Assembly (NCBI GenBank): GCA_037444665.1
Contig: JBBILZ010000006.1
Location: forward strand, 56-64,055
Reading direction: 5' to 3'
DNA: 64,000 nucleotides
From: a candidate division WOR-3 bacterium
Lineage (GTDB): Bacteria; Hydrothermota; Tepidihabitantia; SM23-42; JAOAFX01
This document shows, in pieces, positions 2,777-49,327 of the stretch. Under the pieces are notes generated by a model, which made no database searches, was not told the origin of the DNA, and was given only the letters and a program-made list of their open reading frames with translations. Positions within the stretch are counted from its first letter, which is position 1. Every line of letters starts with the position of its first letter. A program made the position numbers and the translations under genes.

Positions 2777-2875
2777 CCTGGATTATAGATTAAAATTACC
2801 TTTTTGTCAATAGAAGTTTGCAGAGTTCAAGATATAGTATAGGAGTAGGGACTTTAGTCCTACTCCTCATTGTCC

Positions 2876-3150
2876 ATTTTGTAGTTGCCCGCTTGCAATG
2901 GCGAATTCCCCAATTGTAGTTGCCCGATTTATCGGGCATATCAAATATTCGTTTCCATATTATTTTATCATCATACCTGGTAAAAAATTTGTAGTAATGT
3001 AAAAATGTAGTGGCAGAGTTTACCCTGCCAAATTAAATCAAGCAAAGACATTTTTCTCCATTCCACAATTCCAAAATTGTAAAATAATCAAATGGATAAT
3101 TGCCCTGCAATATGTTATACTTTGCCGATTGGTCAACTACATTGATTTAA
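2876..3150. repeat. Cluster of REP-like elements (GTAG box + GC-rich hairpin), left flank of the accessory island
   Basis: ttGTAGttGCCCGATttATCGGGCat (2909-2939); partial copy ttGTAGttgcccgc (2876-2905); ttGTAGtaatg (2987-3000); atGTAGtgGCAGAGtttaCCCTGCc (3003-3028); inverted copy caatGTAGttgacc (RC of 3137-3150). Near-identical copies occur in opposite orientation at 13239-13342. Confidence 0.6.
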
Positions 3151-3217
3151 TTCCATTTTGGAATGGCTAACCTATTAAGTGTGAAAATTTGACCCAATCC
3201 GAATTATTATTGAAGGA

Positions 3218-3859
3218 CTAAATCCCCTCTGAGTTAGTTCTGGTGAACCACCAGCCGAGACCGATTGTAATACCAGCACCTATTTGAATACCGTAACCGG
3301 CACATGAACTCCAAGCACCATCCTTCCAGTTTTTAATAGCTCCAATACGAACTGTAAATCCCAATGTCAACGGTTTAATGATTTTGTGATTCAGTTCAAC
3401 CGCTCCTGAGGTAAACTTGCCGATATACGCAGAAAACCTCAATCTCACAGTACTCAGCGATAGAATGCTACAATGTAGCACATAGACTGTGTGAATCGAT
3501 ATCATGGATGCATAAAATGCCTTAGGAGAGTACGATACAAATTCGTCATCTACTAATTCCTGTACATTCATGCCGAATCCCCATCTTGAATTTTTTGGGA
3601 AATATGTTACTGTAATAAAACTCATTTCAGCACCATGTTTGATTTGATAAACAAGTGTATCATATGAAGTATAATCAACACGCTTATGATATCCTCCATA
3701 AAGTCCGAACCTAAGAATCTCAATATCCACCACCGGCATTATAACCTTGCGCTCATTCTGCAGTAACTTGTAGTTCTGAGCAGAGGACAGGTGCGCATAT
3801 GACAACACAACCGCAACAATGAACTTAATAATCAACAACCTAATCGAACTGCAACGCAT
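3218..3859 (-). CDS. Small outer-membrane beta-barrel protein, paralog A
   Basis: Signal peptide and beta-rich sequence. It shares a duplicated promoter and upstream element with the gene at 4783-5391. RBS AAGGGG precedes the ATG. Confidence 0.45.
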   Translation of the reverse strand: MRCSSIRLLIIKFIVAVVLSYAHLSSAQNYKLLQNERKVIMPVVDIEILRFGLYGGYHKRVDYTSYDTLVYQIKHGAEMSFITVTYFPKNSRWGFGMNVQELVDDEFVSYSPKAFYASMISIHTVYVLHCSILSLSTVRLRFSAYIGKFTSGAVELNHKIIKPLTLGFTVRIGAIKNWKDGAWSSCAGYGIQIGAGITIGLGWWFTRTNSEGI

Positions 3860-3893
3860 AATACCCCTTACCCCAATCCACTACATATTATGA

Positions 3894-3921
3894 GATTATA
3901 CAAATAATTTTTCCGCTGTCA
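3894..3921 (-). promoter_or_regulatory. Sigma70-type promoter TTGACA-16-TATAAT for 3218-3859
   Basis: Minus-strand sequence reads TTGACAgcggaaaaattatttgTATAAT, near-identical to the promoter at 5487-5514. It is preceded by a conserved element of about 38 nt (3922-3962). Confidence 0.6.
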
Positions 3922-4008
3922 ACTATAAAACAGCTAAATTATGCGGTAAAATGTTAAGCTCTGACCCGGGGCGTGCCTTCACACCATTATGATATTTGTT
4001 CTTAGATT

Positions 4009-4431
4009 TTAAGGCAGCAATAGTTCAATTGTTTGTTTACGGCGTTGGAACAATACATCAACATTTTCAAAAAAGTCTTTCTGCCCAAGTATAAATGAAA
4101 ACCCATGAAAATTAAATTGTCCAAAACCTACCTGGGCTGGTAGTCTATAGGTCCCATGCTCAATATCTATTGTTAATTTATAAATGAATATTTCACCGAG
4201 ACCTCCGATTCCGCTGACGGATTCCTTTGGGCATGAAGATAATGGAACCCCCAAAACTTCACCGATTTCAATCTGACAGAAGCAACGATTAGCACCTGAA
4301 TCGATGAGCGCTTCGACATTCATAAATTTTCCCTCAACGATGATAGTTATAGGAATGATTGGCATTAACTCATACCTGATGGGCGCCTGTGATATTGCAA
4401 TTGATTTATATTTGTATCGAACTTTGTGCAA
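4009..4431 (-). CDS. Retropepsin-like (clan AA) aspartic protease; the true start is probably the internal Met at 4365
   Basis: VEALIDSGANRCF matches the D-S/T-G-A active-site motif of retroviral-type aspartyl proteases. The protein is small and has a single domain. Confidence 0.6.
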   Translation of the reverse strand: MHKVRYKYKSIAISQAPIRYELMPIIPITIIVEGKFMNVEALIDSGANRCFCQIEIGEVLGVPLSSCPKESVSGIGGLGEIFIYKLTIDIEHGTYRLPAQVGFGQFNFHGFSFILGQKDFFENVDVLFQRRKQTIELLLP

Positions 4432-4680: not shown

Positions 4681-4782
4681 GGGGCGGTTTTACTGTCGGA
4701 TTTATCTAACAAACAGCCAAAATAGAAAAATTATGTGGTAAAATGTATAATGTTGAGATCTGACCCCCTGACGGCCAAGAAA

Positions 4783-5391
4783 TTAAAACTCATACCATAA
4801 ACCAATTGAAAGATTAAAATCATAAATTGATATAGAAGCACCTACATCAGTAAGCACGGGATGGTTAGTTAGGTTATAATTAAAGGAAAACTCAGGTGAA
4901 ATCCTTAGTTTTGCCATCTTATTTTCCATACCAATACTTGCCGTAAAGTATAAATCGTTTCTGAGTTGTTCAATTGGCCGCTCTGTACCCAATTCTGTAT
5001 CTACTGCTTTACCATATATTTGAAAATTACTACCAATACCAATGCCCAGATAAGGCTTATTGGAAAGTTTTGCAAAGGGTTTAAATGTGGCTGTTATAGG
5101 TATGAACACATTTGTGTAATAACGATTTGTGCCCGGCCAATATTTTCTGATGTATGAACTTGTTTTAATTTGCGGCGTAAAATTGACTTCCCAACATGGA
5201 TTTAGATTAAAACCCATACCAATTCCACCATGCAAACCATTGCCCGAAACATCACTAAATGGTTTATCGTAATCTTCAATACACCAATTTCCTCCAACTT
5301 TTATACCAATATATGTAAGCAATGGCGCTGAAAAACAGAAAGGAAATACACCAATAAATTGAATTATGGTTAATAATATTAGCCTATTCAT
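4783..5391 (-). CDS. Small outer-membrane beta-barrel protein, paralog B
   Basis: Signal peptide, a C-terminus ...GLWYEF ending in an aromatic residue (typical of OMPs), and Gly/aromatic-rich beta strands. Confidence 0.5.
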   Translation of the reverse strand: MNRLILLTIIQFIGVFPFCFSAPLLTYIGIKVGGNWCIEDYDKPFSDVSGNGLHGGIGMGFNLNPCWEVNFTPQIKTSSYIRKYWPGTNRYYTNVFIPITATFKPFAKLSNKPYLGIGIGSNFQIYGKAVDTELGTERPIEQLRNDLYFTASIGMENKMAKLRISPEFSFNYNLTNHPVLTDVGASISIYDFNLSIGLWYEF

Positions 5392-5486
5392 TCTTGGTCC
5401 ACTCCCATCCCCTCTGCATCTAACTTAGCACTGGATTTGCAAGTCATCTTCATATCTCCTTAATTTAATCTACTACTCTATGCTAC

Positions 5487-5514
5487 ATTATACAAACAAT
5501 TTCTCCGCTGTCAA
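5487..5514 (-). promoter_or_regulatory. Sigma70-type promoter TTGACA-16-TATAAT for 4783-5391
   Basis: Minus-strand sequence reads TTGACAgcggagaaattgtttgTATAAT. The conserved upstream element lies at 5527-5575. Downstream, a 21-codon uORF (aaggagatATGaagATGact...) has its stop overlapping the main ATG (ATGA). Confidence 0.6.
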
Positions 5515-5598
5515 GGACAGGATAAAAAATTATGCGGTAAAATGTAAAATGTTAAGATCTGAGCCAAAGGCGTCCAAATTCCAATGTGAATGTGGGAT

Positions 5599-8998: not shown

Positions 8999-11900
8999 TT
9001 ATTCCTCCGTTTTCATTACTTCCTGCCACAGAAGGTGTAGTACTTCACGCTGGGTTTTAGGACTCAAGATAGATAGAACCTCCTCTTCAATGACCTTGTC
9101 AATTTTTTCTCTTAATGCAGATAACTCAGGCAATATTTTTTTAAGATATTTTTCGTCATTGGGAATTTTTATAGTATCTAACCCCATTCCAATAAAATTT
9201 TTGAGATATTCGGCTTCAATTTCAGTTTCACATTCAATAAAAGCATTAGTCCCCCTAAGACGCCACTTAAATAGGTCTTTTTCAATTTTAATTTTTCCTT
9301 CAATTTCGGGTAAAGTTTTTTCATAGCAAGGTTTTGTTAAAATCTTTTCCCTATAGAATCTGCCCAAAGTATTATCGCCAAGTTGTGAGACAAGATTTTT
9401 TACTAACAATTCAATATCTATCCCTTCTTTGCTCTTTTTCTTCTTACCTTTGTCTTTTGCCTTTTTAATACGTGAATTAACTAAATCCACCACTGCCCGA
9501 TAAATCTCAAGTTGTTCTTCATCGGTAAGCCCGAGTATCTCACCCATAATAATTTTATCCAATTCCCTGCGGTCTGGTTTGATTTTGTCTAGTGTTACAT
9601 CTTTAGATTGAGTACTCCCCAGTTCATCAAAAACAGTCCCAAAATCTCTGCTTTTAAATGTTTCAAACATTGCGAGTAGAGTTTTTTTAGTGTTTTCCAA
9701 AATCTTGCGAGGATTTAATACGGGGAGTTTTTCAACTTCATAAACCATGAATCCAGTGGGAGCACCACCTCCTCCATAACTTCTGCCTAAAATATCTGGA
9801 TACAGAAATGCTATAGTTGAGTTAAAATATAACACAATTATCTTATTTATATCATCTACACTACTTTCGCATTCATACAATGTATGATCAACAAAACAAT
9901 TAAACAAATTCAGATGATATTTATAACTCTGTTGAAAGTACATTGTGAAAAGTACCTTGTAAGGATACCATTCTCCCAAATCATACCATCTGTTTCTACT
10001 CGCACAAGTTGGTCTTTTATGATAGCCTTTTCGTTCGCCCCACTGAATATATTTTAAGACATTTGTGCCTTTTAAATCTTTTTTATCTTTATGAATCATC
10101 AGGACTCGGTATTTTAAGTCTTCTGGTTTAACTATGATTGTTTTACATTCCCGGGGGCTTTTAATCACATAATTGGGAACCCAGTTGCCTTTATCGTCCT
10201 TATGCATCCAGAACTCTTTTTCAATTTTCTACTTTTTGATTTCTTCTTCGGTCAGATAGAAAAACTCATTGGCACCGGTTTTGATACCGAATCTCACTTC
10301 TGCAAGTTCCTTTAATGGCAAAAGTTTGTCTTTGCCCTTCTCTAAAATCTTAAAGAAAATCTGCGGCGCCCTTATATATTTGCCCCATTTTGAACCAACA
10401 TATTTCTGTTCTTCTGGGTCAAAGCCTTCGTCCCAGAGTTCTTTTTGTTTTTTGGGAATATTCTCAAATCTTCATTCTCATAAAGCTCATTATGGAAAAG
10501 TATGGTCTTTATTAATTCATCTATTTTGTTAAATCGTTCTTTCTCTTTTGCCCAATTATTAACCAGGGGGGGTATAAAATCCGATAGTTTCTTTTTTAAA
10601 TAAACAAACCTTACTAAATTTTCATCACGTTCCTGTGCATTTTTACATTTCTGAAGAATAACAATGCAGGTGTTAATATCTGCATCCTCAAACCAGCGCT
10701 CAACTTTGGATTCAATGATTGTAACTATCTTATAGTTTTTCAGAAAAAATTCTTGAAGACCCTTACCATAATCCACATCAAGCCAGGAATTGGATACGAT
10801 AAAACCAAAATACCCAGTATCTTTCAAAAATTTTGTGCCGTGGATAAAAAAGTAGGTATGAATACCCGCCCGTTTTGAAATATCGGCAAGTTTTTGATTA
10901 TTTAAAAAAAGCGCCTTTTTTATAAGACTGCCTTTCTCTACGCCAGTCTCTGGAATCTCTTCTTGTCGGGTATAAGGAGGATTACCAACAATGCAATCAA
11001 ACCATCGTGGATAAGTTACTTCTTTACCCATCTTACCGAGGGCTACCGTAACCACCTTACGCCATTTTTCGGGTAGTTCTAAACCCTCGGGTGAAGATAA
11101 TAGGTTAAAGAAGTCATCATGGACAATCATCGGATAATTCTTGTCCACAGATAAATCTCTAATAGCCAGATTTATTGTTGATAGGTGGGCTGGGAATTTA
11201 GCGATATCAACACCCCATAAATCCTTTAAGATTTCCTCATGTTGAAGCATTGAATTCATCAATTTCTTATGTTGATATGCCCTGACTAAAAAAGTTCCTG
11301 CGCCGCAAGCAGGGTCAAGAACTTTGTCCTTTTCATGATGCATACAGAACCTTAAAATAATGTCGACGATATTGGTGTTTGTAAAGTATTGACCCAGATT
11401 ATGACGTTCTTCAGCCGGAATTAACTGTTCAAAAATATAACCGATTATGTCATAAGTTAGATTGGAAAAATTGTAGCGCCTTAATATTTTCACCAAATTT
11501 TTTATTTCTGTTACGACTGCTGCATTATCAGGGAAAGCTAACTCATCAATAAAATCACTTGAATATACGGTCTCGTAGTCTATTTCTAGGACATCATTAA
11601 AATAGTTTTGCAAATGATTCTTAAGTAATCCACCTTTGGTTAAATCATCTGGAATATTTAATGGATCAAGTTTACGCTGTCTTTTAGCCTGAAGTGCATT
11701 ATAAAAGACAATTTTATTAACCAGAAGATAGGCGGTTTGCCGTGCAGCTTTAACAAAGTCTATATCTTGACCATTAAATTCCCATAATTGTTCATTGAAC
11801 CAATTTTTCAATTGCTGGCGAAATTCTTTATTCTTGTGATATTCATCTTCAATGATGACTTTGTAATATCGTGCAAGACGATTGACCTTTTCTTGCAAAC

Positions 11901-12480
11901 GCCAAACCAATAATTGATTTATTTCAATTAAAGGCTCAGATTTTTCCCCGGTGACAAACTGCGCAATATCTAAAATTAATTTCTCCAACCCTGCGTAGAT
12001 GCTGTTACGAAATTTTGGAAGTTCAATTTCATTCAGATCGGCAATCTGAGAAAGTTCATATCTGCCGACCAATTGCTCTTCAATAGGCTTCATCTCATTT
12101 ACTTTAATAGTGTTGAACAAAAAAAGGGACTGGAAATTAGATATCGCAAAATAACGGGCTTTTCTTCGGGCGGCTTTTTTGCGTGCAGGTTCTTTTAAAT
12201 TCTCCTCGTCGTCAGGTTCGTAAAAAGGTGCCTTGAATTCCAAAAGGCAAATAATTTCTTCATCTACCCTGCCTTTATATAATACAACATCGGGACGGGC
12301 GCGGTCACCAGGATGTTTTGTTTCAACTTCAGCAATACCAAGGGGAATATTCTTCTCTTTTATAATTTCATTAATCCATTCCATTATTTTGGCGGTTGCA
12401 GTCCATTCGGTTTTAATGACAAAATCTTCTATGGGACTCGGTGTTCGCTGGGTGCTTTTCAGAAGTTTACTTTTTTTCAT
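8999..12480 (-). pseudogene. MmeI-like Type IIG restriction-modification enzyme (PD-ExK nuclease + gamma-class N6-adenine MTase + TRD), disrupted
   Basis: The N-terminus has RPDVVLY...LLEFKAP (PD-ExK). MTase motif I is DPACGAGTFL and motif IV is GNPPY. After a -1 shift in the A/T homopolymer around 10440-10456, the reading continues as ...ELWDEGFDPEEQKYVGSKWGKYIRAPQ...VRFGIKTGANEFFYLTEEEIKK. An in-frame TAG follows at 10229-10231. The 402-aa downstream ORF (8999-10207) is in the same frame and has a TRD-like sequence. Confidence 0.6.
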
Positions 12481-12820
12481 CTTCCTTTTCTTTTAAGACC
12501 TCTTGAACTATACGGCGGGCGATTTCAAAGGTGGCGGCAATCCTGATAATTTTTACATCACCTAACCCTTTTATTTCAAGAAATTTTTTGAGCGGCTGAC
12601 CGAACATACCACGAAAAGAACCAAATTTTTCTAAAATCTCCTTCGCAATCGTTTCAGCAGATTTACCTTTTATTCCAGAACCAATGATGATTGATAATAA
12701 TTCGGCTTCGGTTAAATGCCCTGCTCCTAAGTCGCGCAATTTACCCCCTGGATGTGTCCAATAGGGGAATTTTGAATCGCGCAAAAGATTAGCTACTATT
12801 TTAGATTTTTTAGATGGCAA
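12467..12820 (-). CDS. radC: RadC-like protein, N-terminal HhH domain only (truncated; the JAB/MPN domain is missing)
   Basis: LTEAELLSIIIGSGIKGKSAETIAKEILEKFGSFRGMF...IKGLGDVKIIRIAATFEIARR matches the RadC N-terminal helix-hairpin-helix region. The ORF ends where the JAB domain should begin, and it overlaps the RM gene start. Confidence 0.6.
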   Translation of the reverse strand: MPSKKSKIVANLLRDSKFPYWTHPGGKLRDLGAGHLTEAELLSIIIGSGIKGKSAETIAKEILEKFGSFRGMFGQPLKKFLEIKGLGDVKIIRIAATFEIARRIVQEVLKEKEDEKK

Positions 12821-12929: not shown

Positions 12930-13230
12930 GGCGACATTTTTGGTGAGATGCTGAGTGGTTGCGTGAATAGGATAAGTGGAGTAAGTAGTAGGCAGTAGGT
13001 AGTATGTAGTAGGTAGCTCCGCCTTGAAAAGGCGAGAGTTCGCGTCCGAAGGACGGAATAAGTAGTAAGTAGTAAATATCCAGTATCGATTATCAGTTAT
13101 CGAGTATCAAGAAAGCATCAACGCCCAATATAATTAAAATACCTAAAAGTCCAAAATGCCTAAATGCCTAAAAGTTAAAATGCCTAAAAGCCCTAAACCT
13201 GTCCTGAACTCGGTTCAGGATACCTAAAAA
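12930..13230. repeat. GTAG-rich microsatellite-like tract with several short hairpins and ATGCCTAAA(A)G tandem repeats
   Basis: agtaaGTAGtagGcaGTAGGTAGtatGTAGtagGTAG. Hairpins: ccgccttgaaaaggcg, cgtccgaaggacg and cctgaactcggttcagg. atgcctaaa occurs 3 times. Non-coding. Confidence 0.5.
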
Positions 13231-13238
13231 TTTAATCT

Positions 13239-13342
13239 ATGCCCGATGAATCGGGCAACTACAATTGGGAAAATAATCTTACCTACTGATGTTTTATCTT
13301 AGCAGAGTAAACTCTGCCACTACATTGTCGCATTACTACAAT
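13239..13342. repeat. REP-like element cluster (inverted orientation relative to 2909-3028), right flank of the island
   Basis: The RC of 13239-13269 is cccaattgtagttgcccgattcatcgggcat (1 mismatch to 2909-2939). The RC of 13302-13326 is aatgtagtggcagagtttactctgc (matches 3003-3028). The RC of 13331-13341 is ttgtagtaatg. Confidence 0.6.
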
Positions 13343-13426: not shown

Positions 13427-14014
13427 ATGCCCCTTTTAAATGACCTGATTGAAAAACTTCAGTGGTTACCAGGTATTGGTAGAAAAACAGCACAACGACT
13501 CGCCTTTTTTCTTCAGAAAATGGAAGTATCCCAGGTAAAAGAACTCACTGATGCCATCTTAAAGGCAAGATTGGAATTAAAAGAATGCTCAATCTGCCAC
13601 AACCTTGGCGAAACAAATCCCTGTGAAATCTGTGGTTCATCCAACCGAAATAAGGAACAGATATGTGTAGTGGAACAACCCGCAGATGTGATGGTGATAG
13701 AAAAGATTGGTGAGTACAAGGGTCTATACCATATCTTGCACGGCGCCATATCACCGATTGACAATGTCGGTCCTGAAGATTTACGCATCAATAGTTTAAT
13801 AGAAAGGGTAAAAACACAAAATATTAGTGAGGTCATTATCGCTACGAACCCGACAACCGAAGGTGATGTTACTGCATTGTATATTGCTAAATTACTAAAG
13901 CCACTAAATATTAAGGTGACGAGGATTGCCCGTGGACTGCCTATGGGCAGTGACCTCGGACTGGCTGATGGTGTAACGATTTTAAGGTCATTTGAAGGAA
14001 GGCGGGAATTATAA
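13427..14014 (+). CDS. recR: Recombination protein RecR
   Basis: HhH N-terminus, C4 zinc finger (CSICHNLGETNPCEIC) and a Toprim domain. Strong family match. Confidence 0.9.
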   Translation: MPLLNDLIEKLQWLPGIGRKTAQRLAFFLQKMEVSQVKELTDAILKARLELKECSICHNLGETNPCEICGSSNRNKEQICVVEQPADVMVIEKIGEYKGLYHILHGAISPIDNVGPEDLRINSLIERVKTQNISEVIIATNPTTEGDVTALYIAKLLKPLNIKVTRIARGLPMGSDLGLADGVTILRSFEGRREL

Positions 14015-26093: not shown

Positions 26094-26981
26094 CTACTTA
26101 ATACCTTTGTGCCTCTTTGCTGAAATGATGGTATTATACAAAAGCATGGTTATGGTCATAGGTCCAACACCACCAGGCACTGGTGAAATGGCACTCGCCT
26201 TTTTACTAACTTCATCAAACTCCACATCACCAATCAATCTGAATCCACTCTTTTTTGTTGAATCCTCAATACGATTAACACCCACATCAATAACAACTGC
26301 ACCTTCCTTAACCATATCTCCATTAACAGTATGGGGTCTACCCGCTGCCACCACAAGGATATCTGCCTGTTTAGTATAATCACCCATATTCTTTGTGCCA
26401 GTATGGCACATCGTGACCGTTGCATTTGCTCCGGGTTTCTTCTGAACAAGAATCATTGCCAGTGGTTTGCCCACGATATTACTTCTTCCAACAATTACTA
26501 CATGTTTACCCGAAACCTCTATGCCATTGCGGATTAATAATTGTTGAATGCCATGGGGTGTGCAGGGTAGAAAGCAATCAGCACCGATCATCAATTTACC
26601 TACATTTACCGGATGGAATCCATCCACATCCTTGTCCGGGTCAATTGCGTATAAAACCTTTTCTTCATTAATATGGTCAGGCAATGGCAATTGAACGAGG
26701 ATACCATGAATTGTATCATCTTTATTGAGATTATCAATAAGTTTTAGAAGTTCAGATTCCTGATAATCAGCAGCAAATTTATATTCCCGCGACATAATCC
26801 CGACCTCAGCACATGCCTTTTCTTTTCCTTTCACATAAGAAATAGAAGCAGGATTATCACCAACCAGGACCACTGCCAATCCCGGCACAAGGTTATACTT
26901 CTCTTTAAGTTCTACAATCTCTTTTTTCATCTCCTCGCGCATCTTTTCTGCAAGTTCAGTCCCGCTTAAAATTTTTGCCAT
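26094..26981 (-). CDS. folD: Bifunctional methylenetetrahydrofolate dehydrogenase/cyclohydrolase FolD
   Basis: ASISYVKGKEKAC and VGRSNIVGKP motifs, 295 aa. Confidence 0.9.
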   Translation of the reverse strand: MAKILSGTELAEKMREEMKKEIVELKEKYNLVPGLAVVLVGDNPASISYVKGKEKACAEVGIMSREYKFAADYQESELLKLIDNLNKDDTIHGILVQLPLPDHINEEKVLYAIDPDKDVDGFHPVNVGKLMIGADCFLPCTPHGIQQLLIRNGIEVSGKHVVIVGRSNIVGKPLAMILVQKKPGANATVTMCHTGTKNMGDYTKQADILVVAAGRPHTVNGDMVKEGAVVIDVGVNRIEDSTKKSGFRLIGDVEFDEVSKKASAISPVPGGVGPMTITMLLYNTIISAKRHKGIK

Positions 26982-27078: not shown

Positions 27079-27108
27079 ATTGTAGTTGCCTCATTTATGA
27101 GGCATTAT
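27079..27108. repeat. Solo REP-like element (GTAG box + hairpin with a compensatory stem variant)
   Basis: attGTAGttGCCTCATttATGAGGCat has the same architecture as 2909-2939, with stem ctcat/atgag instead of ccgat/atcgg. Confidence 0.5.
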
Positions 27109-27203: not shown

Positions 27204-28241
27204 ATGACAACGATGAAGGCAGTAGTTAAGACAAAACCAGAACCCGGGGCAGAATTAATTGATGTCCCGGTCCCGACACCAGGACCCAACGAGGTCCTGG
27301 TAAAAGTTTTAGCAAGTTCAATCTGCGGCACTGACCTCCATATCTTTCAATGGAATGAATGGGCACAAAAAAGGCTCAAAAAAATTCCTAAGATAATGGG
27401 CCATGAATTATGCGGTCAGGTCGTAGAGGTGGGCAGCAATGTCCAAAATATAAAAAAGGATGATATTATCTCAGCAGAGACACATATTGCCTGTGGCTAT
27501 TGTTTTCTCTGCAGAAATGGTCTTGCCCATATCTGTGAAAATGTGCGGATTTTTGGTGTTGATATTGATGGTGTTTTTGCCGAATATGCAGTTGTGCCCG
27601 CCACAAATGCCTGGGTTATTGAAGAAAAAATACCCAAAGATTATATCTCAGTAATGGAACCGCTGGGCAATGCAATCCACACCGTGCTTGCTGGTGAGAT
27701 TGCGGGTAATAGTGTACTGATTACTGGTTGCGGACCCATCGGGATTATGTCTGTTGCTGTGTGTAAAATTTGTGGTGCAACAAAAATCATTGCAACCGAA
27801 ATCAATGAATACCGATTGCAGCTGGCAAAAAAGATGGGCGCAGATGTAATTTTGAATCCAAAAAAGAATAAAATTCTGGATGCAATTATGCAGCACACAA
27901 ATGGAAAAGGTGTGGATGTGGTCTTAGAGATGTCTGGCAATCAAACTGCAATAACTGATGGATTGAAGGCTTTAAGGCCTGGTGGCAGGTATTCAATTCT
28001 TGGCATCCCTGAGCGTCCAGTAAAGATAGACCTTGCTGAGATAGTCTTCAAATACTTTACAATCCAGGGTATCAATGGCAGGCTAATGTTCTCTACCTGG
28101 TATAAGGCAACACGATTCCTTGCTTCAGGTAAACTTGACCTTGAACAGGTTATTACGCATCGGCTACGACTGGAAGAATTCCAAAAAGGTATGGGATTGA
28201 TGGAAAGCGGGAATTGTGGAAAGATTCTCCTTTATCCTTAA
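27204..28241 (+). CDS. tdh: L-threonine 3-dehydrogenase (Zn-dependent MDR family)
   Basis: GHELCGQVVEVG and a Cys-rich structural Zn site (CGYCFLCRNGLAHIC). Confidence 0.85.
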   Translation: MTTMKAVVKTKPEPGAELIDVPVPTPGPNEVLVKVLASSICGTDLHIFQWNEWAQKRLKKIPKIMGHELCGQVVEVGSNVQNIKKDDIISAETHIACGYCFLCRNGLAHICENVRIFGVDIDGVFAEYAVVPATNAWVIEEKIPKDYISVMEPLGNAIHTVLAGEIAGNSVLITGCGPIGIMSVAVCKICGATKIIATEINEYRLQLAKKMGADVILNPKKNKILDAIMQHTNGKGVDVVLEMSGNQTAITDGLKALRPGGRYSILGIPERPVKIDLAEIVFKYFTIQGINGRLMFSTWYKATRFLASGKLDLEQVITHRLRLEEFQKGMGLMESGNCGKILLYP

Positions 28242-30664: not shown

Positions 30665-31912
30665 ATGGCGTTTGACAACAAAATAAGAGAATTTTTTTCA
30701 AATGAATTAAAAGGCATTAAGGAAAAAGGACTTTTCAAAGAAGAAAGATTTATTGCCTCACCACAGTCCGCAATGATAAAGGTTGAATATCCTGCTGGTG
30801 CACCACCAAAAGAAGTTATAAATTTCTGTGCCAATAATTATTTGGGATTATCAAGCCATCCTGAGGTAGTGAAGGCAGCGCACGAAGGGCTTGAAAATCG
30901 TGGTTATGGTATGTCCTCGGTCCGTTTTATCTGCGGCACACAAGATATTCATCGTGAACTTGAGAAAAAACTTACTGAATTCTTAGGAACTGAAGACACG
31001 GTCCTTTTTCCATCTTGTATGGATGCCAATGCCGGAGTATTTGATGTTGTCTTAGATAAAGAAGATGCAATGATTGCAGACCGTCTTGTCCACGCATCCA
31101 TTGTTGATGGAATGAAACTCTGCAAAGCACAGCTTTACAATTACAAACACCTCAATATGGCACATCTTGAAGAAAAATTACAGGAAACACAAAACTGCCG
31201 TTTTAGAATGATTATTACTGATGGTGTATTTTCAATGGATGGGGATATTGCACCCCTTGATAAGATCTGCGAGCTTGCTGAAAAGTATAATGCAATGGTA
31301 ATGGTTGACGATTCACATGCTACTGGATTTTTAGGAAAAAGTGGCAGAGGCACACATGAACATTGTGGTGTTGTGGGCAAGATTGATATCATCACTACCA
31401 CTTTGGGCAAGGCAATGGGTGGTGCATCAGGTGGATGTGTGAGCGGTCGTAAGGAGATTGTTGAGATGTGCCGTCAGCGCGCCCGCCCCTATCTTTTTTC
31501 CAATACTATTCCGCCCGTAGTAGTGGCAGCAGCAAATAAGGTGGTTGACCTGATTGCCAGTACTACAAAACTGCGCGACAAATTAGAAGAGAACACCAAA
31601 TATTTTCGTGCAAAGATGAAAGAAGCAGGTCTGGATATAAGAGAAGGGGTCCACCCTATTGTGCCCGTAATGTTATATAATGCAAAACTCGCTCAGGATA
31701 TGGCGCGCGATTTGTATGACGAAGGTATATATGTGGTCGGTTTCTTCTTCCCGGTTGTGCCACAAGGTCAGGCAAGGATTCGTGTTCAAATTTCAGCGGT
31801 CCACGAAAAAGAGCACCTTGATAAGGCGATTGAGGCATTCAAAAAGGTTGGCGCAAAGTATAATATCCTTGGCAAAAAGAAAGAAGAGATTATTGCGATG
31901 TATGGACTATAA
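30665..31912 (+). CDS. kbl: 2-amino-3-ketobutyrate CoA ligase (glycine C-acetyltransferase)
   Basis: Long stretches are near-identical to canonical Kbl: GLFKEER, NFCANNYLGL, SVRFICGTQD, DGVFSMDG, MVDDSHA and GFFFPVVPQGQARIR. Confidence 0.9.
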   Translation: MAFDNKIREFFSNELKGIKEKGLFKEERFIASPQSAMIKVEYPAGAPPKEVINFCANNYLGLSSHPEVVKAAHEGLENRGYGMSSVRFICGTQDIHRELEKKLTEFLGTEDTVLFPSCMDANAGVFDVVLDKEDAMIADRLVHASIVDGMKLCKAQLYNYKHLNMAHLEEKLQETQNCRFRMIITDGVFSMDGDIAPLDKICELAEKYNAMVMVDDSHATGFLGKSGRGTHEHCGVVGKIDIITTTLGKAMGGASGGCVSGRKEIVEMCRQRARPYLFSNTIPPVVVAAANKVVDLIASTTKLRDKLEENTKYFRAKMKEAGLDIREGVHPIVPVMLYNAKLAQDMARDLYDEGIYVVGFFFPVVPQGQARIRVQISAVHEKEHLDKAIEAFKKVGAKYNILGKKKEEIIAMYGL

Positions 31913-32028
31913 AACAAGGGAGATAAAGGGATATTAAGGGATATCAGGGGTAATCACGGAACGCTTGATAATTTTTACCCTTAATTACCCATTATAACCC
32001 CTAATTCCCCTTAATAACCCCTGTTAAA
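31913..32028. repeat. Imperfect palindromic array of GGG(A/T)TAT / TTAA(T)NACCCC repeats
   Basis: aagggatattaagggatatcagggg ... ttaccc ttaattaccc attataacccc taattcccc ttaataacccc forms inverted halves around about 31970. Confidence 0.45.
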
Positions 32029-33156
32029 ATGAATACCTCTGATGTAATCATCATTGGTGGTGGAATTATTGGTTGTGCAACTGGTTATTATTTAACTAAA
32101 AAGGGTTTAAAGGTCTATCTCTTTGAAAAGGATTACCTAACTGCTGGTTCAACAGGACGCTGTATTGGTGGTATAAGACAGCAATTTTCAACAGAATTGA
32201 GTATAAAAATTGCAATGGAATCAGTAAAAAAATTTAAGGTGATGGAACAAGAACTTGGGATGGATGTGGAGTTTGAGCAGGATGGTTATCTATTCCTTGC
32301 ACACAATAAAGAAAAAGAAGAAACTTATAAAGGTTTGATTGCACTACAGCAAAGAATGGGTCTGGATGTTGAGTATGTGGATGTTCAAACAATTCAAAAG
32401 ATCGTGCCAGGCATAAATACGGAAGGTCTTTTAGGTGGTGCTTATTGTCCTTCAGATGGACAGGCAAATCCATTTTTAGTAGTTGATGGTTATGCCCGCA
32501 GAATAAAAGAAAAGGGTAAAATCTTTAGCCATTGTGCAGTAACAAAAATAAATCTACAGGGGAATAAAGTAAATTCAATTACTACAATTAATGGTGAGAC
32601 ATACTATGCACCGATTATTGTCAATGCCACAGGACCGTTTATCAGAGATTTCTCGCGCCATTTAGGAATTGACATTCCAGTCTATCCAGAACGGCATGAA
32701 TCACTGATTACCGAGCCCATAGAAGTTTTTTTCCGTCCAATGGTTGTTGATTATCGTCCTGATGGTTGTTATTTCCATCAAAAGGCAAAACAGGGAAGTA
32801 TTATTGGATGTTATACACCAGTTCCGAATGTGCCAGGCAATGACCTTGGTTCTTCTTTTGAATTTATAAAAGAGATGGGCAGAAGAATGGCACGGTTAAT
32901 CCCCAAACTTGAAAATATAAAGATTATCAGGCAATGGTCAGGCAGTTATGAGATGACCCCTGATGGCAATCCGATTCTGGATAAAACGCCAATTGATGGA
33001 TTATGGATTATCAGTGGATTCTGTGGTCATGGCTTTATGCTCGGTCCAGAAATTGGCTATGTCTCTGCAGAATATATTACTGCGGGCAAACCCCCTTATG
33101 ATATAAGTGAATTTGCACTCAATCGCGACTTCTCCCGACGGGAATTAATGAAATAG
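32029..33156 (+). CDS. FAD-dependent oxidoreductase (DAO family; glycine/D-amino-acid oxidase-like)
   Basis: N-terminus VIIIGGGIIGCATGYYL...YLFEK (Rossmann FAD-binding), 375 aa. Confidence 0.7.
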   Translation: MNTSDVIIIGGGIIGCATGYYLTKKGLKVYLFEKDYLTAGSTGRCIGGIRQQFSTELSIKIAMESVKKFKVMEQELGMDVEFEQDGYLFLAHNKEKEETYKGLIALQQRMGLDVEYVDVQTIQKIVPGINTEGLLGGAYCPSDGQANPFLVVDGYARRIKEKGKIFSHCAVTKINLQGNKVNSITTINGETYYAPIIVNATGPFIRDFSRHLGIDIPVYPERHESLITEPIEVFFRPMVVDYRPDGCYFHQKAKQGSIIGCYTPVPNVPGNDLGSSFEFIKEMGRRMARLIPKLENIKIIRQWSGSYEMTPDGNPILDKTPIDGLWIISGFCGHGFMLGPEIGYVSAEYITAGKPPYDISEFALNRDFSRRELMK

Positions 33157-48850: not shown

Positions 48851-48919
48851 ATTTAAATATCAAAGGAAAATATGGAGCCTGGTTTTACCCAGGCTCCATA
48901 TCTGGATTCAATGAATCCA

Positions 48920-49171
48920 TTATTCATTTGCAGTGCGTTCGACCTTAATGGCTTTGTCTCCTTTCGGAGTTTGCGTAATTTCAAATTTAACTCGTTCGCC
49001 TTCTCTAAGAACCCGATAACCTTCACCCACTATATCTTGATAATGGACAAAGACATCACCGGATCCATCTTCTTTCTCTATAAAACCATAGCCCTTCTTT
49101 CCATCGAACCACTTTACTTTTCCGTAGACCAAATTTCCTCCTTTCGAGCCTTCATCGCCCTTGAAGTTCAT
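48920..49171 (-). CDS. csp: Cold-shock protein (CspA family) with a short C-terminal tail
   Basis: GKVKWFDGKKGYGFI...DVFVHY. The ATG at 49171 is taken as the start (the ORF track begins at an upstream TTG at 49192). Promoter TTGACA-16-TATAAT at 49213-49240. Confidence 0.8.
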   Translation of the reverse strand: MNFKGDEGSKGGNLVYGKVKWFDGKKGYGFIEKEDGSGDVFVHYQDIVGEGYRVLREGERVKFEITQTPKGDKAIKVERTANE

Positions 49172-49291
49172 AAGGGCAACCTCTACGGTCAAAGCTTATA
49201 ATATTATATTTAATTAATGATGTGTGTCAATAGGCAAGTGCAGAGTTTCAAGACAGGGTATCCACCTCCAGAATATCTTCTAGGTTTAAAT

Positions 49292-49321
49292 AAAAAGAGG
49301 GAGGCGAACCTCCCTCTTTTT
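49292..49321. terminator. Bidirectional intrinsic-terminator-like hairpin
   Basis: aaaaagagggagg-cgaa-cctccctcttttt is a perfect 13-bp stem flanked by A and T runs on both strands. Confidence 0.55.
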
Positions 49322-49327
49322 ATTTTG

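Follow-up and report, generated by a model that had tools for sequence, protein, structure and literature searches.

Repetitive extragenic palindromic (REP) sequences have been defined operationally as a GT[AG]G tetranucleotide placed 0-2 nt from a fully paired stem of at least 7 bp, with a loop of 2-5 nt and at least three G/C among the first four stem bases (PMC6006769). Within this class, the GTAG superfamily is characterised by TY loops, stems of 6-9 bp with alternative complementary residues, dimers and REPtrons (PMC3733652), a REPtron being a REP-associated tyrosine transposase (RAYT) gene that lies between REPs of its own family. GTAG REPs outside Proteobacteria and a patchy RAYT distribution consistent with horizontal transfer have already been reported (PMC3733652, PMC6006769). 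Here we describe a family of GTAG-headed hairpins in a 64-kb stretch of DNA (about 36% G+C; hereafter the window) from contig JBBILZ010000006.1 of a candidate division WOR-3 bacterium, and propose that they are very probably REP elements of the GTAG superfamily that belong to a RAYT-linked family. Work on REP sequences and RAYTs has been confined almost entirely to Proteobacteria, apart from some studies of Cyanobacteria, and the mechanism by which REPs are copied is still unsettled.

All copies of the family in the window are intergenic, and they comprise three intact copies, two variants and one or two decayed copies. The intact copies share a canonical unit of 26 nt, TTGTAGTTGCC[NNN]ATT[Y]AT[NNN]GGCAT. 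Four copies had been quoted by a first-pass annotation of this DNA; all of them are real, each lying a few bases away from where it had been placed, but the canonical copy at 13239-13264 (-) and the decayed copy at 2877-2908 (+) had been overlooked. The members of the family, followed by one promoter that is given for context only, are:

2914-2939, plus strand: canonical REP A1, TTGTAGTTGCCCGATTTATCGGGCAT, read as TT-GTAG-TT-GCCCGAT-TT-ATCGGGC-AT; the conserved unit spans 2906-2940
13239-13264, minus strand: canonical REP A2, TTGTAGTTGCCCGATTCATCGGGCAT, between the divergent UPF0758_N open reading frame (ORF) 12467-12820 (-) and recR 13427-14014 (+)
27080-27105, plus strand: canonical REP A3, TTGTAGTTGCCTCATTTATGAGGCAT, with the stem GCCTCAT/ATGAGGC, which carries two compensated pair changes
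2877-2908, plus strand: decayed REP copy, head-to-tail before A1, with the GTAG box and 5' arm TTGTAGTTGCCCG kept and the loop and 3' arm mutated
2989-3040, plus strand: variant module B1 (52 nt), with an extra GTAG box at 2991-2994 followed by a variant REP at 3007-3029
13290-13341, minus strand: variant module B2, with a REP at 13302-13323 that reads GTAG-TG-GCAGAGT-TT-ACTCTGC and has a perfect 7-bp stem
3108-3144, minus strand: doubtful, inverted REP relic, TGTAGTTGACCAATCGGCA
2782-2810, minus strand: sigma-70-type promoter (TTGACA-17-TATAAT, 12/12 consensus match) serving ORF 1097-2776

The 35-nt unit of A1 is 94% identical over 35 nt to positions 13238-13272, and module B1 matches 13290-13341 in inverted orientation with 85% identity over 52 nt. 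Modules A and B thus recur about 10 kb away on the opposite strand, and since their order at the second site is reversed relative to the first, we conclude that they are independent units and not one duplicated block. Two stem subtypes, CGA and TCA, are present in the window, as is the GCAGAGT variant, which diverges further, and the copies are arranged as dispersed singletons together with one tandem pair that contains the decayed member.

The window family fits both the operational REP definition (Quentin et al. 2018) and the description of the GTAG superfamily (Di Nocera et al. 2013). In the three canonical copies GTAG is followed by TT before the stem (a single T, if the second pairs with A), and in the two variants by TG. 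The stems GCCCGAT/ATCGGGC and GCCTCAT/ATGAGGC are closed by TT or TC loops, while the variant in B1, GTAG-TG-GCAGAGT-TT-ACCCTGC at 3007-3029 (+), has one A/C mismatch that becomes a G.T wobble on the opposite strand. In its dispersed, extragenic occurrence and in a hairpin that has GTAG on the 5' side of its G+C foot, the family resembles the REPs and bacterial interspersed mosaic elements (BIMEs) of E. coli, which are paired with TnpA_REP (RAYT, YafM; PDB 4ER8), and the GTAG-3 family (Di Nocera et al. 2013). It differs from the E. coli REP, an imperfect, bulged palindrome of about 35 nt, in its perfect 7-8 bp stem and 2-nt TY loop. Short hairpins with a tetranucleotide 1-2 nt from the stem, subfamilies defined by alternative complementary stem residues, dimers and clusters are likewise shared with the REPINs of Pseudomonas and the SMAGs of Stenotrophomonas, which are linked to RAYT subclass 2.5 or group 3 (PMC6006769, PMC3733652).

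Statistical support for the family was obtained in three ways. The hexamer TGTAGT occurs 41 times in the window compared with 17.7 +/- 4.0 times after shuffling, and none of 100 shuffles reached 41; about ten perfect intergenic hairpins with a stem of at least 7 bp are present, four of which are REP-family units. A covariance model (R1) trained on copies from other genomes and then run on the window recovered A1 with 41.4 bits (E 5.4e-8), A2 with 39.9 bits (E 1.2e-7), A3 with 37.9 bits (E 3.7e-7) and the decayed copy with 21.1 bits (E 0.0037). The variants scored 11.3 bits (B1, ungapped and in register) and 13.9 bits (B2, with all seven model pairs formed), and the relic at 3108-3144 (-) was non-significant in the same search (10.4 bits, E 1.3). 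Folded as single-stranded DNA (ssDNA), A1 and A2 each reached -7.8 kcal/mol (z -4.8 and -4.6, respectively), A3 -6.6 kcal/mol (z -4.8), B1 -5.3 kcal/mol (z -3.3) and B2 -5.1 kcal/mol (z -2.9), and no ssDNA hairpin was obtained for the decayed copy (z 0.28) or the relic (z 0.01). The model E values together with the shuffle results exclude a chance origin. Searches of the whole window against Rfam at gathering thresholds and for tRNA or tmRNA genes returned no match. A further hairpin at 2842-2866 (GGAGTAGG...CCTACTCC, possibly of a 'double-foot' shape) was left out of the family, as neither the window nor the fetched loci yielded a second copy.

We scanned 185,579 species-representative genomes, a set outside which the window's own genome falls, for the pattern TTGTAGTTGCCNNNTNNANNNGGCAT and found that the unit is matched at at least 111 loci, in metagenome-assembled genomes (MAGs) labelled as about a dozen phyla. 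The statements on hosts, copy numbers and pairing that follow refer to the matches listed. Host labels include Zixibacteria, WOR-3, Elusimicrobiota, Dehalococcoidia, Poribacteria, Ignavibacteria, Planctomycetota/Brocadiales, Nitrospirae, Nitrospinaceae, Schekmanbacteria, Firestonebacteria, Clostridia and others, and some genomes carry several loci (at least 11 in CAYWFU01 and at least 8 in the Poribacteria chromosome OZ252032). The three stem positions left free by the pattern were all Watson-Crick paired in 103 of 114 matches, where chance predicts 1 in 64. In these 103 the free positions were occupied only by CAA, CGA, TGA, TCA or CCA, and the loop was TT or TC in 99. The few unpaired matches, which come from MAGs labelled Bacteroidetes, Bacillales, Chloroflexota and Promethearchaeota, resemble chance background. 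The best conserved part of the unit is the unpaired GTAGTT head, which is identical across about a dozen phyla. The flanks of the 26-35 nt units are unrelated to each other, the neighbouring genes are unrelated and come from many phyla, and the fetched loci include no close relative of the window at the DNA or protein level. The decayed copy of the window aligns to intact tandem REPs in L146, L120 and L118, which are among the metagenome loci described below, and A3 has identical 30-mers in three loci of Clostridia-labelled MAGs (L008, L082 and L095). Hairpins with the head GTAGTGGC, as in variant B, form a sister type, which we found with an AAAG/CTTT stem in a WOR-3 MAG (L007) and with a GGGG/CCCC stem in three copies in a Dehalococcoidales MAG (L015); the exact variant stem GCAGAGT...ACTCTGC was absent from all fetched loci.

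To avoid circularity, covariation of the stem was assessed on 118 distinct copies that start with GTAGTTGC and do not match the scan pattern, so that their 3' half was unconstrained. In this set 83.8% of the cells of the 7-bp stem were paired, compared with 72.1% in column shuffles, and sliding the stem partner by 1-3 columns left only 24-36% of cells paired. Double-sided changes numbered 113, as opposed to 38.6 +/- 4.5 after shuffling, and none of 500 shuffles reached 113. The three middle pairs switch between CG/UA, CG/UA and GC/AU/CG across the family, and G.T-compatible pairs occur as well. The difference between CCGAT/ATCGG and CTCAT/ATGAG in the window corresponds to two fully compensated base pairs. 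Such compensated changes indicate selection on intrastrand pairing and not on duplex sequence. Both the assignment of the window's hairpins to a REP/BIME-like repeat family and the compensatory nature of their stem substitutions had been put forward in the first-pass annotation, and both are borne out by the other genomes: the unit recurs at the at least 111 loci described above, and the substitutions, which might have turned out to be non-compensatory once more copies were aligned, are compensatory family-wide.

The arrangement of the copies was analysed in the same genomes, with the reservation that the counts are not phylogenetically independent and some loci are near-duplicates. The 255 REPs counted in the 111 listed loci include 82 singletons, 21 tandem pairs and inverted pairs of two kinds, 54 with GTAG outward (median gap 13 nt) and 22 with GTAG inward; heterotypic inverted dimers are the commonest arrangement. 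When this set was taken together with the RAYT loci described below, the partners of inverted pairs differed in their mid-stem variant in 176 of 184 cases, whereas about 15% would be identical by chance; of tandem neighbours on the same strand, about half are identical. Inverted dimers of two REP types are also a feature of E. coli BIMEs (Y and Z types), but the Pseudomonas REPIN, in which two near-identical inverted REPs can form one long hairpin, is different in this respect. The alternating orientation that had been ascribed to the window's copies is typical of the family elsewhere and is not seen in the window, in which the clear copies at 2877-3040 are all on the plus strand and only the non-significant relic at 3108-3144 is inverted; the two regularly alternating REP types that define a BIME are not present there.

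Candidate transposases were sought with E. coli RAYT and IS200 sequences as queries against the ORFs predicted in the fetched loci. This search picked two small ORFs of 132-137 aa and 54% mutual identity, one from a Zixibacteria locus (L012) and one from a Dehalococcoidales locus (L009), each with REP clusters on both sides at a distance of 50-70 bp. Both proteins match Pfam Y1_Tnp above cutoff, their best NCBIfam match is REP_Tyr_transpos (NF047646; 71.5 and 70.6 bits), with IS200 reaching only 24-44 bits, and the closest PDB entry is 4ER8, E. coli TnpA_REP (E 1.9e-10, compared with 2.6e-3 for the ISDra2 transposase). An alignment of the two was then used to scan metagenome contigs, which yielded 261 relatives, and 80 loci (L114-L193) were kept. 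A REP of the family lies within 250 bp upstream of the RAYT gene in 72 of these loci, downstream in 72 and on both sides in 69, and short contigs account for many of the remaining loci. Near the RAYT gene the density of REPs is 4.96 per kb, and elsewhere in the same loci it is 0.25 per kb, a 20-fold difference. A REP often overlaps the 3' end of the RAYT gene, as is also the case in published REPtron descriptions (PMC3733652, PMC6006769). At least 78 of the 82 sequences retain residues H64, H66, Y119, W98, Q99, E104, H105, R108 and N123; the corresponding HuH motif, catalytic Tyr, W-Q, E-H, R and N are GTAG-contacting or essential residues of E. coli TnpA_REP (PMC6006769). The family shares with the E. 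coli system a transposase gene placed between its own REPs and the conserved HuH, Y, WQ, EH, R and N residues; it departs from it in the size of the enzyme (about 135 aa, compared with 165 aa in E. coli), in its uncultured, non-proteobacterial hosts and in the presence of one nucleotide sequence across phyla instead of species- or genus-specific ones. Families GTAG-16 to -23 of Cyanobacteria, Chloroflexi and the Planctomycetes-Verrucomicrobia-Chlamydiae (PVC) group are likewise GTAG REPs with REPtrons outside Proteobacteria, and their patchy distribution was put down to horizontal transfer (PMC3733652). The link to RAYTs that had been proposed by analogy with proteobacteria is hence substantiated by the two genome loci and 69 of the 80 metagenome loci, in hosts that are not proteobacteria. 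One other candidate was set aside, a 319-aa protein with Y1_Tnp and DnaA_C domains in L048 (1007-2003) that is separated from a REP by about 5.7 kb and represents a different subclass. This protein carries a C-terminal DnaA-type helix-turn-helix, its MAG is labelled Proteobacteria, and it is probably of the terminal inverted repeat (TIR)-associated RAYT-like type of the literature.

The linked enzyme is a member of the Y1/HUH superfamily, as are the transposases of the IS200/IS605 insertion sequences (IS; for example IS608 and ISDra2), which recognise an ssDNA hairpin with an adjacent tetra- or pentanucleotide, a mode of recognition that by analogy may apply to the window family. We therefore considered whether the hairpins are subterminal ends of an IS200/IS605-family element, or of a palindrome-associated (PATE) or miniature inverted-repeat (MITE) transposable element derived from one, and not free-standing REPs. 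Such an origin would suit the conservation of module B as a 52-nt composite, the 9 conserved upstream bases included in unit A and the inverted dimers, whose unlike left and right stems recall distinct left-end (LE) and right-end (RE) hairpins. The window contains neither tnpA nor tnpB, however; the units occur as many free-standing singletons of 26-35 nt with unrelated flanks; the RAYT genes sit amid clusters of many REPs and not between one LE and one RE; and the pattern gave no match in 2.9 million viral contigs. With an IS body absent, the units standing free and both NCBIfam and PDB comparison placing the enzyme nearer to TnpA_REP than to the IS200 and ISDra2 transposases, this explanation fails, and we consider it very unlikely.

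A second explanation is that the hairpins are ordinary host RNA elements, that is, intrinsic terminators or 3'-end stabilisers in which GTAG is incidental and no transposase is involved. The first REP cluster sits in a 440-bp intergenic region (2777-3217) between the minus-strand ORFs 3218-3859 and 1097-2776, and, given the promoter at 2782-2810 (-), it follows the stop of ORF 3218-3859 and precedes the next gene's promoter, a position that suits such elements. On the transcribed minus strand, B1 moreover reads as a hairpin followed by CTACATTTTT, which was flagged as terminator-like, downstream of ORF 3218-3859, and G.T-compatible pairs within a family have been taken as a hint of RNA function (PMC3733652). 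The canonical copies have no T-run on either strand, and the pattern of a terminator fits only B1 on the minus strand. Two of the three canonical copies lie between divergently transcribed genes, where no transcript end is expected: A2, in the position given above, and A3, between folD 26094-26981 (-) and a zinc alcohol dehydrogenase gene 27204-28241 (+). The absence of T-runs and the divergent settings together defeat an explanation by termination alone, and neither the sequence identity of the unpaired GTAGTT head across about a dozen phyla nor the 20-fold concentration of the repeats around RAYT genes would be expected of such elements. We hence regard a purely RNA-based origin as improbable, although some copies could be used as terminators in a secondary role, and a secondary role of single copies, for instance in transcript 3'-end stabilisation or termination, is possible. 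It is scarcely credible that the sites are operators for a host DNA-binding regulator, as might be suggested by two copies that stand within divergent promoter regions, some 100-190 bp ahead of recR, folD and the dehydrogenase gene, given that the flanking genes are unrelated, the unit stands beside unrelated genes in many phyla and the stem changes point to intrastrand pairing, or that they are chance palindromes in A+T-rich intergenic DNA, which the model E values and shuffles exclude.

Several observations weigh against the assignment to a RAYT-linked REP family. The density in the window is low, with three intact copies per 64 kb. A search of the window for RAYT or Y1 ORFs found none, with no tnpA and no tnpB, in agreement with what had been read from its ORFs before, and the REPtron arrangement is found at the level of the family and not inside the window. 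The linked RAYTs score just below the curated cutoff of NCBIfam NF047646 (71.5 and 70.6 compared with 80 bits), and MAG labels and binning could inflate the apparent range of phyla. To our knowledge, transposition of REPs in vivo has never been directly shown in E. coli. Finally, REP families are found mostly between co-directional or convergent genes (PMC3733652), and two of the three canonical copies in the window differ from this by their position between divergent genes.

Starting from a repeat whose structure, covariation and close physical association with a RAYT clade of other genomes are direct observations, and drawing on work on E. coli TnpA_REP for binding, cleavage and mobilisation (PMC3479197, PMC8266576, PMC6006769), we propose the following model, which follows the one published for GTAG REPs. 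The unit, consisting of a 5' GTAG, one or two unpaired T, a G+C-footed stem of 7-8 bp and a TY loop, would fold as a hairpin when single-stranded, for example on the lagging-strand template. A cognate RAYT of the TnpA_REP type (HUH/Y1) would bind this hairpin, read the GTAG and cleave beside it, and its action over evolutionary time may have dispersed, duplicated and maintained the repeats in intergenic DNA. REPs would accordingly depend, as non-autonomous partners, on a transposase of domesticated type present in a single copy. Contact with the protein is likely made by the invariant head (GTAGTTGC) and apex (ATTYAT), and the three middle pairs, which appear to change only in compensated fashion, would define subtypes. 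The RAYT gene of the window's organism would then be located elsewhere in the genome or have been lost.

Further copies in the source sample are suggested by contig breaks. Exact-protein look-ups led to three short contigs of an independent short-read assembly (Logan, run SRR11582170), all inside the span of the window, with L001 and L002 coming from one contig. L001 starts at window position 13240, inside the A2 hairpin, and L194 ends at position 2911, at the edge of A1. Short-read contigs are expected to terminate at multi-copy repeats. Since the two in-window copies share only 21 identical bases at the break, which is below a typical assembly k-mer, the contig ends at A1 and A2 indirectly suggest additional REP copies in the SRR11582170 sample.

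Literature string searches for the repeat sequence and for the accession SRR11582170 found nothing relevant, with the consensus figures of published families not covered by them, and GTAGTT/AACTAC is absent from the text of PMC3733652, whose consensus sequences are given in figures and were not covered by a comparison with GTAGTTGCC...GGCAT. The window itself implies nothing beyond a known class of selfish or domesticated repeat. Mildly unusual features of the family are a near-identical 26-mer across many candidate phyla, the very small size of the enzyme and the heterotypic pairing of REPs in inverted dimers. A bolder proposal, which we put forward only tentatively and hold to be doubtful, is that one REPtron lineage, made up of a RAYT of about 135 aa and a 26-nt REP with near-invariant head and apex, may have colonised, by horizontal spread, a dozen or more mostly uncultured phyla, among them Zixibacteria, WOR-3, Elusimicrobiota, Dehalococcoidia, Poribacteria, Ignavibacteria, Planctomycetota, Nitrospirota, Nitrospinota, Schekmanbacteria, Firestonebacteria and a Clostridia MAG, and that the 3 bp in mid-stem may serve as a functional 'barcode'. 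If this were true, the heterotypic inverted dimer would act as a mini-transposon whose two ends, left and right, can be told apart as they can in IS608, and two different barcodes per dimer would avoid one long perfect palindrome. Spread of this kind would be at odds with the picture of vertically inherited, species-specific RAYT/REPIN systems. The family is in any case useful for asking whether RAYT/REP pairs move between phyla, and the compact 26-nt REP and its enzyme of about 135 aa are convenient for biochemical dissection of REP recognition. In practical terms, the repeats break short-read assemblies of such genomes, and masking them is advisable when intergenic hairpins are read as regulatory RNAs.

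Other repeats accompany the REPs in the window. An 8-mer array, AAATGCCT x7.4 (for example AATACCTAAAAGTCCAAAATGCCTAAATGCCTAAAAG), lies at 13137-13197, about 40 nt from A2. A near-identical array followed by the same REP opens the WOR-3 MAG contig JBBINQ010000054 (L113, 1-100), where the REP flank is also alike, and similar arrays are present in two RAYT loci (L120, at about 600-660, and L134). The array may be a second repeat family that travels with REPs, or may hint at the lineage of the window. The divergent intergenic region that holds A2 and B2 further contains two GTAG-rich heptamer arrays, AGTAGGT x5.3 at 12980-13016 and TAAGTAG x2.4 at 13059-13075, which bracket the hairpins CGCCTT-gaa-AAGGCG (about 13021-13035) and CGTCC-gaag-GGACG (about 13043-13056); no other copy of these arrays and hairpins was found in the window or the fetched loci. 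The 117-aa ORF that adjoins this repeat-rich region, 12467-12820 (-), has only the N-terminal UPF0758 (RadC-like) domain, and its end is overlapped by a 702-aa ORF for an Eco57I/MmeI-type N6-adenine methyltransferase at 10372-12480 (-).

Repeated intergenic modules at 3866-3957, 4726-4778 and 5458-5577, made up of 57-nt, 53-nt and 22-nt families with a spacing of about 795 bp, lie upstream of the consecutive small minus-strand ORFs 3218-3859, 4009-4431 and 4783-5391. One module shows, by eye, a consensus TTGACA-N16-TATAAT promoter on the minus strand, and one of the small ORFs has a weak outer-membrane beta-barrel match; modules and ORFs together resemble gene-plus-promoter cassettes that were duplicated in tandem. 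Two adjacent 10-mer tandem arrays, AAGGGATATA x2.9 and TTACCCTTAA x4.6, occupy 31916-32022 between ORFs 30665-31912 and 32029-33156. Lastly, two perfect hairpins unrelated to the REP family are found at 48870-48901 (13-bp stem) and 49288-49325 (17-bp stem), the first at the start of ORF 48872-49201 and the second about 90 bp downstream and flanked by A/T in the manner of a bidirectional terminator.

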